NCBI RefSeq assembly: GCF_041886205.1
Contig: NZ_CP169029.1
DNA: 64,000 bases
DNA from: Escherichia coli
GTDB taxonomy: Bacteria > Pseudomonadota > Gammaproteobacteria > Enterobacterales > Enterobacteriaceae
Reading direction: 5' to 3' (one strand)
In this document: in pieces, positions 35,155 to 43,723 of the stretch
How the letters are laid out: every line of letters starts with the position of its first letter
How positions within the stretch are numbered: the stretch's first letter is position 1
Notes under the pieces: model-generated
The model's database searches: none
Seen by the model: only the letters and a program-made list of their open reading frames with translations
What the model was told of the DNA's origin: nothing
Program-made: the position numbers and the translations under genes

Positions 35155-35275
35155 ACCCCGTAGGACGGATAAGGCGTTTACACTGCATCCGGCAACCTAT
35201 GCCTGATGCGACGCGGAAGCGTCTTATCATGCCTACATAGCACTGCCACGTATGTTTACACCGCATCCGGCATAA
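35155..35275. repeat. Cluster of REP (BIME-type) palindromic elements
   Basis: Repeated gccggatgcggtgtaaacgccttatccg and gcctgatgcgacgc...gcgtcttatcatgcctac type palindromes. Confidence 0.65.
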
Positions 35276-35294
35276 AAACACGCGCACTTTGCTA

Positions 35295-35324
35295 CGGCTT
35301 CCCTATCGGGAGGCCGTTTTTTTT
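35295..35324 (+). terminator. Rho-independent terminator (fbaB / upstream of gatY)
   Basis: Hairpin cggcttccc tatc gggaggccg followed by a run of eight T. Confidence 0.7.
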
Positions 35325-35386
35325 GCCTTTTACTCCTCGAACAATTTTCACATTGTCGTTTTTGTGATCGTTATCTCGACATTTAA

Positions 35387-36311
<925 letters not shown>

Positions 36312-36312
36312 T

Positions 36313-37586
<1,274 letters not shown>

Positions 37587-37595
37587 GGACGGTAT

Positions 37596-38048
37596 ATGAC
37601 TAACCTGTTTGTTCGTAGCGGAATTTCTTTTGTCGATCGTAGCGAAGTTTTAACCCATATCGGTAATGAGATGCTCGCGAAAGGTGTGGTTTATGATACC
37701 TGGCCACAGGCATTAATTGCCAGAGAAGCAGAATTCCCTACCGGGATAATGCTTGAGCAGCACGCCATTGCTATACCGCATTGTGAGGCGATTCATGCTA
37801 AGTCGTCAGCCATTTATCTGTTAAGGCCAACAAATAAAGTTCATTTTCAGCAAGCGGATGATGATAACGACGTGGAGGTGTCGTTGGTTATTGCGTTGAT
37901 TGTGGAAAATCCGCAGCAGCAATTGAAACTTTTACGCTGTTTATTTGGCAAGTTACAACAGCCCGATATCGTCGAGACACTAATCACTCTTCCTGAAACC
38001 CAGTTAAAGGAATACTTCACAAAGTATGTTTTAGATTCAGACGAATAA
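37596..38048 (+). CDS. gatA: Galactitol PTS enzyme IIA
   Basis: 150-aa ORF in the conserved gat operon order. Confidence 0.95.
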   Translation: MTNLFVRSGISFVDRSEVLTHIGNEMLAKGVVYDTWPQALIAREAEFPTGIMLEQHAIAIPHCEAIHAKSSAIYLLRPTNKVHFQQADDDNDVEVSLVIALIVENPQQQLKLLRCLFGKLQQPDIVETLITLPETQLKEYFTKYVLDSDE

Positions 38049-38078
38049 ATCCCTCTGTAACAATAAAAAGGACTATTT

Positions 38079-38363
38079 ATGAAACGCAAGATTATTGTCG
38101 CTTGCGGAGGCGCGGTTGCGACCTCTACGATGGCGGCGGAAGAAATTAAAGAGTTGTGTCAGAATCATAATATTCCTGTTGAATTAATCCAGTGTCGGGT
38201 TAATGAAATAGAAACCTATATGGATGGTGTGCATTTGATATGCACCACTGCCAAAGTGGATCGTAGTTTTGGCGATATTCCGTTAGTTCACGGCATGCCT
38301 TTTATTTCTGGTATCGGTATCGAAGCATTACAAAATAAAATTCTGACTATCTTACAGGGGTGA
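38079..38363 (+). CDS. gatB: Galactitol PTS enzyme IIB
   Basis: 94-aa [27 protein letters not shown]. Confidence 0.95.
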
Positions 38364-38366
38364 CCT

Positions 38367-39722
38367 ATGTTTTCAGAAGTCATGCGTTATATTCTCGACC
38401 TCGGCCCTACGGTGATGCTGCCGATTGTCATCATTATTTTTTCTAAAATATTAGGCATGAAGGCAGGCGATTGCTTTAAAGCGGGTCTGCATATCGGGAT
38501 TGGCTTTGTTGGCATTGGCCTTGTGATTGGCTTAATGCTGGATTCCATTGGCCCGGCGGCGAAAGCGATGGCGGAAAATTTCGACCTGAATCTGCATGTG
38601 GTCGATGTTGGCTGGCCGGGCTCTTCACCAATGACCTGGGCGTCGCAAATTGCGCTGGTGGCGATTCCGATTGCGATTCTGGTTAACGTGGCGATGTTAC
38701 TGACCCGTATGACGCGGGTGGTAAATGTTGATATCTGGAATATCTGGCATATGACCTTCACCGGCGCGTTGCTGCATCTGGCAACTGGTTCATGGATGAT
38801 AGGGATGGCAGGTGTGGTAATTCACGCGGCGTTTGTTTATAAGCTCGGCGACTGGTTTGCCCGCGATACCCGAAATTTCTTTGAGCTGGAAGGTATTGCT
38901 ATTCCGCACGGTACGTCGGCGTATATGGGGCCGATTGCGGTGCTGGTCGATGCTATCATCGAGAAAATCCCAGGCGTTAACCGAATTAAATTTAGCGCCG
39001 ACGATATTCAGCGCAAATTTGGTCCATTTGGCGAGCCTGTCACCGTGGGTTTTGTGATGGGGCTGATTATCGGCATCCTCGCGGGTTACGATGTCAAAGG
39101 TGTATTGCAGCTGGCGGTAAAAACGGCGGCAGTGATGCTGCTAATGCCACGGGTGATTAAACCCATCATGGATGGTTTAACGCCCATCGCTAAGCAGGCT
39201 CGTAGTCGTTTACAGGCGAAGTTCGGCGGTCAGGAGTTCCTGATTGGCCTTGATCCGGCGTTGCTGCTGGGACATACGGCGGTGGTATCGGCAAGCCTGA
39301 TTTTTATCCCACTCACCATTTTAATTGCTGTTTGTGTGCCGGGTAATCAGGTGCTGCCGTTTGGCGATCTTGCCACCATCGGCTTCTTCGTGGCGATGGC
39401 GGTCGCCGTGCATCGTGGAAATCTGTTCCGCACCTTAATCTCGGGTGTCATCATTATGAGCATCACCCTGTGGATCGCGACGCAAACTATTGGTTTGCAC
39501 ACCCAACTGGCGGCTAATGCTGGGGCGTTAAAAGCCGGGGGTATGGTGGCTTCAATGGATCAGGGCGGTTCTCCCATTACCTGGTTACTGATTCAGGTTT
39601 TCTCCCCGCAAAATATTCCCGGTTTCATTATTATCGGTGCAATTTATCTGACCGGTATTTTCATGACCTGGCGTAGAGCGCGTGGCTTTATTAAACAAGA
39701 GAAAGTCGTTCTCGCAGAATAA
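38367..39722 (+). CDS. gatC: Galactitol PTS enzyme IIC
   Basis: 451-aa polytopic membrane protein. Confidence 0.95.
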   Translation: MFSEVMRYILDLGPTVMLPIVIIIFSKILGMKAGDCFKAGLHIGIGFVGIGLVIGLMLDSIGPAAKAMAENFDLNLHVVDVGWPGSSPMTWASQIALVAIPIAILVNVAMLLTRMTRVVNVDIWNIWHMTFTGALLHLATGSWMIGMAGVVIHAAFVYKLGDWFARDTRNFFELEGIAIPHGTSAYMGPIAVLVDAIIEKIPGVNRIKFSADDIQRKFGPFGEPVTVGFVMGLIIGILAGYDVKGVLQLAVKTAAVMLLMPRVIKPIMDGLTPIAKQARSRLQAKFGGQEFLIGLDPALLLGHTAVVSASLIFIPLTILIAVCVPGNQVLPFGDLATIGFFVAMAVAVHRGNLFRTLISGVIIMSITLWIATQTIGLHTQLAANAGALKAGGMVASMDQGGSPITWLLIQVFSPQNIPGFIIIGAIYLTGIFMTWRRARGFIKQEKVVLAE

Positions 39723-39769
39723 TTTTTACCTGAGGGGGAGGTTATCCCCCTTAACAATCAGGAGTTTTT

Positions 39770-40810
39770 ATGAAATCAGTGGTGAATGATACTGATGGTA
39801 TCGTGCGTGTTGCAGAAAGCGTCATTCCTGAAATTAAACATCAGGATGAGGTGCGGGTAAAAATTGCCAGCTCGGGCTTATGTGGTTCCGATTTACCCAG
39901 GATATTTAAAAATGGTGCACATTATTATCCAATAACGTTAGGCCATGAATTTAGCGGCTATATTGATGCGGTGGGATCCGGTGTTGATGATTTACACCCT
40001 GGCGATGCGGTTGCCTGTGTGCCGTTATTACCCTGTTTTACTTGTCCAGAGTGTCTGAAAGGGTTTTATTCCCAGTGCGCAAAATATGATTTTATTGGCT
40101 CGCGGCGTGATGGTGGATTTGCTGAATATATTGTCGTTAAGCGAAAAAATGTCTTTGCTCTACCCACGGATATGCCTATTGAGGATGGGGCTTTTATTGA
40201 GCCGATTACCGTTGGTCTGCATGCTTTTCATTTAGCGCAAGGTTGTGAGAATAAAAACGTTATTATTATTGGTGCCGGAACCATTGGCCTGCTGGCCATT
40301 CAGTGCGCTGTCGCGCTGGGAGCAAAGAGTGTGACGGCGATCGACATTAGTTCAGAAAAACTGGCACTGGCAAAATCTTTCGGTGCGATGCAAACATTTA
40401 ACAGTAGCGAAATGAGCGCGCCGCAAATGCAGAGCGTTTTACGCGAACTGCGCTTTAATCAGCTTATCCTCGAGACGGCTGGCGTACCGCAAACTGTCGA
40501 ACTGGCGGTAGAGATTGCCGGTCCTCATGCCCAACTGGCGCTGGTGGGCACGTTGCATCAGGATCTGCATTTAACATCGGCAACGTTTGGCAAAATATTG
40601 CGTAAAGAGCTGACGGTTATCGGCAGTTGGATGAACTACTCCAGCCCTTGGCCGGGGCAGGAGTGGGAAACGGCGAGCCGGTTGCTGACAGAACGTAAGT
40701 TAAGCCTGGAGCCATTAATCGCTCACCGTGGAAGCTTTGAAAGCTTCGCCCAGGCGGTGCGTGACATCGCTCGTAATGCTATGCCGGGCAAAGTGTTGCT
40801 CATTCCCTGA
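39770..40810 (+). CDS. gatD: Galactitol-1-phosphate 5-dehydrogenase (Zn-dependent MDR family)
   Basis: 346 aa with Zn-ADH motifs (GHEFSG, GAGTIGL). Confidence 0.95.
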   Translation: MKSVVNDTDGIVRVAESVIPEIKHQDEVRVKIASSGLCGSDLPRIFKNGAHYYPITLGHEFSGYIDAVGSGVDDLHPGDAVACVPLLPCFTCPECLKGFYSQCAKYDFIGSRRDGGFAEYIVVKRKNVFALPTDMPIEDGAFIEPITVGLHAFHLAQGCENKNVIIIGAGTIGLLAIQCAVALGAKSVTAIDISSEKLALAKSFGAMQTFNSSEMSAPQMQSVLRELRFNQLILETAGVPQTVELAVEIAGPHAQLALVGTLHQDLHLTSATFGKILRKELTVIGSWMNYSSPWPGQEWETASRLLTERKLSLEPLIAHRGSFESFAQAVRDIARNAMPGKVLLIP

Positions 40811-40909
40811 AACCGCGGGCCAGCGTGATGCTGGCCCGGTATTGTGCAAAACAGATCATTCACCAATGGTCCCCCTTCGTTTACACTAGCCACAATTGAA
40901 TATGGGTAA

Positions 40910-41689
40910 ATGACGATGAATTCATTCGAGCGAAGGAATAAGATCATCCAATTAGTGAATGAACAGGGAACCGTGCTTGTTCAGGATCTGGCGGGAGTAT
41001 TTGCTGCCTCGGAAGCGACAATCCGTGCCGATTTGCGCTTTCTCGAACAAAAAGGCGTGGTTACGCGCTTTCATGGCGGTGCGGCGAAAATAATGTCTGG
41101 TAATAGTGAAACCGAGACCCAGGAAGTCGGGTTTAAAGAGCGATTTCAGCTCGCCAGCGCGCCAAAAAACAGAATAGCGCAGGCGGCAGTCAAAATGATC
41201 CACGAAGGGATGACCGTTATTCTCGACAGCGGAAGTACGACAATGCTTATCGCCGAAGGATTAATGACCGCCAAAAATATCACGGTGATTACCAACAGTC
41301 TCCCGGCAGCGTTTGCCCTTTCCGAAAATAAAGACATTACTCTGGTCGTCTGTGGTGGCACGGTCCGCCATAAAACGCGCTCGATGCATGGTTCCATTGC
41401 CGAGCGTTCATTACAGGATATTAATGCCGATTTAATGTTTGTCGGTGCTGATGGTATTGATGCGGTTAATGGTATTACGACCTTTAATGAAGGTTATTCT
41501 ATTAGCGGTGCGATGGTCACAGCCGCTAATAAAGTGATTGCCGTTCTCGATTCATCGAAATTTAACCGTCGCGGTTTTAATCAGGTACTACCAATCGAAA
41601 AAATTGACATTATTATTACCGATGATGCTGTGTCAGAGGTGGATAAACTGGCATTGCAGAAGACGCGGGTAAAATTAATTACGGTGTAG
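40910..41689 (+). CDS. gatR: DeoR-family repressor of the gat operon, intact
   Basis: 259-aa uninterrupted ORF with an N-terminal HTH region. To my recollection it is IS-disrupted in K-12 but not here. Confidence 0.85.
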   Translation: MTMNSFERRNKIIQLVNEQGTVLVQDLAGVFAASEATIRADLRFLEQKGVVTRFHGGAAKIMSGNSETETQEVGFKERFQLASAPKNRIAQAAVKMIHEGMTVILDSGSTTMLIAEGLMTAKNITVITNSLPAAFALSENKDITLVVCGGTVRHKTRSMHGSIAERSLQDINADLMFVGADGIDAVNGITTFNEGYSISGAMVTAANKVIAVLDSSKFNRRGFNQVLPIEKIDIIITDDAVSEVDKLALQKTRVKLITV

Positions 41690-41700
41690 TATTGTTCTGT

Positions 41701-41734
41701 ATGCCGGATAAGGTGTTTACACCGCATCCGGCAT
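41701..41734. repeat. REP element
   Basis: atgccggataaggtgtttacaccgcatccggcat palindrome after gatR. Confidence 0.65.
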
Positions 41735-43552: not shown

Positions 43553-43639
43553 AAAAAATAAGCCCGTGTAAGGGAGATTACACAGGCTAAGGAGGTGGTT
43601 CCTGGTACAGCTAGCATTTTATGGGTTATGTTTTTCAGC
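43553..43639 (-). ncRNA. cyaR: CyaR (RyeE) Hfq-dependent sRNA
   Basis: Minus-strand sequence GCTGAAAAACATAACCCATAAAATGCTAGCTGTACCAGGAACCACCTCCTTAGCCTGTGTAATCTCCCTTACACGGGCTTATTTTTT, recognised from memory, including the terminator hairpin. Confidence 0.85.
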
Positions 43640-43723
43640 GAAACGGATGATAACCTTAATAAATGCAGCTGTATGTGATCGGTTTCTAAGAATTTTCCAT
43701 CCGGGAAAAATAATCGAAATTAA

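Follow-up and report, generated by a model that had tools for sequence, protein, structure and literature searches.

The gene at positions 40910..41689 (forward strand) of the window, the whole 64,000-nucleotide stretch of Escherichia coli DNA analysed here, is very probably (with a probability of roughly 0.92) the wild-type, functional gatR of a natural non-K-12 E. coli, encoding the galactitol-induced repressor of gatYZABCD. All 780 of its 780 nucleotides, and both flanking spacers, are the same as in E. coli HS, and the window therefore holds an allele that has been validated experimentally. Both the gene and its wild-type state were known before; the finding leaves current understanding unchanged, and its value is practical only. 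Unlike in MG1655-derived laboratory strains, the gat operon is expected to be repressed here when galactitol is absent, so the high gat transcript levels of K-12 data sets should not be transferred to this strain.

The gatR reading frame and its counterparts in MG1655 and HS

The coding sequence was assigned from the ORF list of the window, the protein domains encoded, the RefSeq annotation of identical DNA, and identity to the alleles of HS and of K-12 once the insertion sequence (IS) of the latter is removed. It forms a single ORF of 259 codons plus a stop, from an ATG to a TAG. The first-pass annotation had described gatR as intact in one 259-residue frame; the ORF list, the sequence and the comparison with K-12 bear this out, and the reading of 40910..41689 for a premature stop or frameshift, which it had suggested, or for an IS found none. 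In the RefSeq/PGAP annotation, translation begins two codons later, at the second ATG (window position 40916), which gives a protein of 257 residues (WP_001295426.1). Both ATG codons are kept in divergent E. coli alleles, both protein lengths are found in databases, and each form occurs as an exact match on at least 1000 public contigs; the choice of start codon has no bearing on the intactness of gatR. Three alleles that differ from gatR of the window by 20-25 nucleotides (2.6-3.2%) contain no internal stops and encode zero, one and one amino acid changes (I198V). Such divergence of DNA with at most one change in the protein indicates that gatR is under purifying selection.

In MG1655, gatR (b4498) is annotated as a pseudogene in two fragments around an IS3E element (2170171-2171428, 1258 bp). 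When the MG1655 locus was aligned to the window by BLAST, the element fell after window position 41214 and the alignments overlapped by 3 bp at 41212-41214, and the junction sequences identified this overlap as the duplicated target GAC, which is present in the window as an empty site. The first-pass annotation had described gatR as IS-disrupted in K-12 and had proposed an alignment with the K-12 region: the description is right for MG1655, with IS3E as the element, and the alignment gave 780 identical positions out of 780 once IS3E and one copy of GAC were removed. The insertion truncates GatR past residue 102, so that the predicted product of MG1655, with 102 native and 10 IS-encoded residues, retains the helix-turn-helix (HTH) but lacks nearly the whole sensor domain, whereas the gene in the window is uninterrupted. 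The K-12 insertion is named 'IS1' in one passage of a published study (PMC5850726), but the sequence and annotation of MG1655 identify it as IS3E.

Inactivation of gatR by IS insertion in MG1655 is reported to result in constitutive gat expression, and replacement of the MG1655 pseudogene by the native gatR of HS, obtained by PCR from primer sites within gatD and yegS, restored regulation; in mice, fresh IS insertions in the HS-derived gatR gave rise to constitutive mutants (Sousa et al. 2017, PMC5850726). For MG1655-type strains, gatR disruption has likewise been given as the reason for raised or constitutive expression of the gat genes by Lyons et al. 2011 (PMC3045373), Kinnersley et al. 2014 (PMC4072538) and a 2026 CRISPRi preprint (bioRxiv 10.64898/2026.01.05.697630), which also reported that silencing of gatR was beneficial in strains LF82 and CFT073. 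These four sources back the statement of the first-pass annotation that the gat operon is constitutive where gatR is disrupted by an IS. GatR of HS (WP_001295426.1) is encoded by the same DNA as in the window, between the same spacers and in the same gene order; the two strains do not differ in gatR, but their gatY promoter alleles differ at a few positions. Because the HS gatR restored regulated gat expression in MG1655, the prediction that galactitol catabolism is regulated in this strain, which had also been made in the first-pass annotation, is well supported, and the full-length gat genes and the promoter variants shared with other natural strains point in the same direction.

The gat operon and its candidate control sequences

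The presumed targets of GatR, gatYZABCD, were located at 35441..40810 on the forward strand by the ORF map and NCBIfam matches. All six structural genes are full-length (GatY, 284 residues; GatZ, 420; GatA, 150; GatB, 94; GatC, 451; GatD, 346), and each of their products exceeds an NCBIfam curated cut-off for a galactitol or tagatose function. In MG1655, gatC is a pseudogene due to a frameshift by two extra G residues at the position corresponding to 39280 of the window, whereas gatC of the window (38367-39722) is intact and encodes 451 residues, and is also intact in NCM3722 and HS. The gene order is gatY-Z-A-B-C-D-gatR, with gatR directly 3' of gatD and convergent with yegS, and the order of the gat genes is the same in the annotated genomes of MG1655, HS and NCM3722.

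Upstream of gatY, the fbaB terminator (35294-35317) and its T-run are followed by the gatY upstream region, in which a consensus scan found a candidate sigma-70 promoter on the forward strand, TCGACA-18-CATTAT (35376..35405), that matches 9 of 12 consensus positions. Its -10 hexamer is overlapped by a perfect palindrome, ATTTCA-N8-TGAAAT (35396..35415), which was noticed on reading the sequence, is the sole perfect copy within the window, and is a candidate GatR operator. With up to two mismatches allowed, the same motif has four matches in the window against 4.1 expected. When seven E. coli alleles were aligned with the gatY start as anchor, divergence in this spacer spanned about 10%, but almost no position varied between 35343 and the start of gatY, and none at all within the palindrome arms or the -10 hexamer. 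The segment just past the fbaB terminator (35318-35345) is unusually polymorphic among E. coli, in contrast to the conserved core promoter downstream; identity across the 128-nucleotide region 35318-35445 ranges from 100% down to about 90%, compared with at least 96.8% for gatR. The fbaB-gatY spacer also contains REP-type repeats (GCCGGATG.../...CATCCGGC) at 35160-35275, which recur in the gatR-yegS spacer at 41703-41732, where a reading of the sequence places a REP-type palindrome (GCCGGAT...ATCCGGC) between the convergent genes.

The presumed operator consensus of AgaR, TTTCRTTTYRTTTY, has four matches in the window with one mismatch allowed, against 0.58 expected. One of these (35397-35410) falls in the -10 region of gatY, and it is treated as a lead only, since the consensus is a presumed one and the other three matches lie elsewhere.

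The gatY promoter of the window differs from the K-12/HS allele at six positions within 35320-35440, one of which changes the candidate -35 hexamer (TCGACA in the window, TCGATA in K-12 and HS). It is a tentative and rather doubtful proposal that the palindrome could be the GatR operator and that strains could differ in basal or induced expression of gat owing to the polymorphism nearby. If so, a strain with intact gatR would not behave exactly like MG1655 restored with the HS gene, and a known system would be modestly refined.

It is distinctly improbable that regulation has been lost or altered outright despite the intact ORF, whether through weak expression of gatR or through a gatY promoter/operator allele that escapes repression. 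The six base differences, including the one in the candidate -35 hexamer, could be read in this way, but each of the variant bases recurs in other natural strains, the gatY promoter region is at least 99% identical to that of the window in 955 genomes, and neither the -10 hexamer nor the palindrome arms vary among the seven alleles. As to expression of gatR itself, no promoter matching at least 9 of 12 positions emerged for it from the consensus scan; however, the gatD-gatR spacer is that of HS, and the HS DNA between gatD and yegS sufficed to restore regulation (PMC5850726). A candidate found by eye, TTCACC-17-TACACT (40859-40887), matches at only 8 of 12 positions and is not claimed as a promoter. 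The window search found no second copy of the palindrome upstream of gatR, and thus gave no evidence of autoregulation.

Just past the gatD stop codon, the forward strand has a G+C-rich hairpin (40816..40838) with a 9-bp stem and a 5-nucleotide loop (-21.1 kcal/mol, z = -2.8), conserved in the four alleles compared save for one stem base in one of them. It is followed by no T-run and so is not a canonical terminator; possible functions are those of a partial terminator or an RNA-stabilising element.

GatR as a repressor of the DeoR family

GatR has the two parts that characterize the DeoR family, an N-terminal HTH and a C-terminal effector-binding and oligomerisation domain. Pfam identified HTH_DeoR (PF08220) at residues 8-60 (40931..41089, forward strand; E = 1.3e-16, 60.5 bits against a cut-off of 21) and the DeoRC sensor/oligomerisation domain (PF00455) at residues 85-238 (41162..41623, forward strand; E = 2.5e-51, 174.2 bits against a cut-off of 31.8). 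The sole solved relative that was found by sequence is the C-terminal domain of DeoR (7l6l). AgaR, SrlR and DeoR of E. coli share this HTH_DeoR plus DeoRC architecture, but each is encoded at another locus and acts on another target operon. Some public sources label the identical protein 'DeoR family galactitol utilization operon repressor'; RefSeq uses the generic name 'DeoR/GlpR family DNA-binding transcription regulator', which is consistent with the finding that the NCBIfam matches of GatR include no GatR model.

It is scarcely credible that the gene encodes some other sugar regulator of this family, a paralogue such as AgaR or SrlR, because the best NCBIfam matches, which together with the generic RefSeq name might suggest it, fall below the curated equivalog cut-offs (AgaR, NF040755, 232.9 bits against 260; SrlR, NF007753, 226.3 bits against 350), and the gene is part of the gat locus and has the same sequence as K-12 b4498 (gatR) and the function-tested HS allele.

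Repression by GatR has a parallel in Salmonella Typhimurium, for which PMC7972205, citing Nolle et al. 2017, describes GatR as a repressor of the gat promoters and states that deletion of the HTH abolishes repression; the likeness to GatR of the window is one of description.

With GatR as the galactitol repressor, the system may be pictured as follows. The products of gatYZABCD constitute a galactitol phosphotransferase system (PTS), a galactitol-1-phosphate dehydrogenase and a tagatose-bisphosphate aldolase. A GatR dimer, held by its N-terminal HTH on the candidate palindrome at the gatY promoter, would block RNA polymerase and keep gatYZABCD switched off. Galactitol would be phosphorylated as it is imported, and a phosphorylated intermediate would most likely bind the DeoR-type sensor domain, freeing GatR from the DNA so that the operon is induced. 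The effectors of DeoR-family repressors are sugar phosphates, and release by a phosphorylated intermediate is proposed by analogy with them. Expression of gatR in this strain, the identity of the inducer and the position of the operator are all presumed in this scheme.

Distribution of intact gatR and the background of the strain

An intact gatR is the norm in E. coli, and the IS3E-disrupted state is a peculiarity of the laboratory lineage of K-12. DNA of gatR was present in 5,109 of 5,426 complete E. coli genomes, and 4,756 of the 5,426 (about 88%, a figure that counts genomes with at least 80% of gatR in one place and is not the exact intact fraction) had most of the gene uncut by this measure. 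Sixty records sampled at even spacing from the ranking of gatR matches comprised 54 uninterrupted 780-nucleotide matches, four K-12-type genes, one IS1 insertion, in BLR(DE3), and one remnant. A 120-nucleotide probe across the K-12 gatR::IS3E junction had a full match in 344 of the 5,426 genomes; the three junction matches listed, ER1709, RP437 and TG1, are all K-12 laboratory strains. These counts identify the intact gene as the norm. The 1.2-kb region around gatR had a match in 5,417 of the 5,426 genomes, and the best match to a 24-kb stretch of the window was 99.9% identical.

In the gut, the gat locus is known as a hotspot where IS insertions arise adaptively, so the uninterrupted gene is the ancestral form from which selection can start. 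BLR(DE3), a derivative of E. coli B, carries an independent IS1 in gatR, inserted after the position corresponding to 41149 with duplication of the 9 bp at 41141..41149; in the window, this site and the IS3E site at 41212-41214 are both empty. Another IS1 lies within gatR of strain 51489, and a third within gatZ of strain EF7-18-51, the gatR region of which is otherwise 100% identical to that of the window. These three IS1 insertions fit the published description of the locus as a frequent IS target.

The intact gatR site is a simple marker against an origin in the MG1655 lineage. The first-pass annotation had taken it as confirmation that the window is not MG1655, and MG1655 is indeed excluded, but the evidence is weaker than was implied: in NCM3722, a strain of K-12, gatR is intact, as reported by Lyons et al. 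(PMC3045373), and encodes an identical protein (WP_001295426.1), and gatC is intact too, so an intact gatR alone rules out the MG1655-type lineage and not the whole of K-12. Comparison over longer stretches of sequence is more telling. Identity to MG1655 is 99.3% over the 10.6 kb upstream of the IS site (70 mismatches), and identity to NCM3722 is 99.0% over 18.4 kb and 96-97% in other blocks. The window lacks the 611-bp PR-X prophage remnant (ogrK, yegZ) that adjoins cyaR in K-12, and it has an IS1 that is absent from HS and NCM3722. This divergence of about 1%, the missing PR-X remnant and the extra IS1 show that the window is not K-12.

The CyaR small RNA gene was located at 43556-43641 on the reverse strand (Rfam RF00112, 100.7 bits). 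In K-12, PR-X, a P2-type remnant, adjoins the 3' end of cyaR, and the K-12 alignment blocks overlap there by 18 bp (43553-43570). The IS1 copy of the window (22942-23709, 768 bp) is 97% identical to IS1A of BLR(DE3). The HS and NCM3722 alignments break exactly at 22942-23709, and the annotation of HS places this site inside the fimbrial usher gene yehB, which thus appears to be interrupted by IS1 in this strain.
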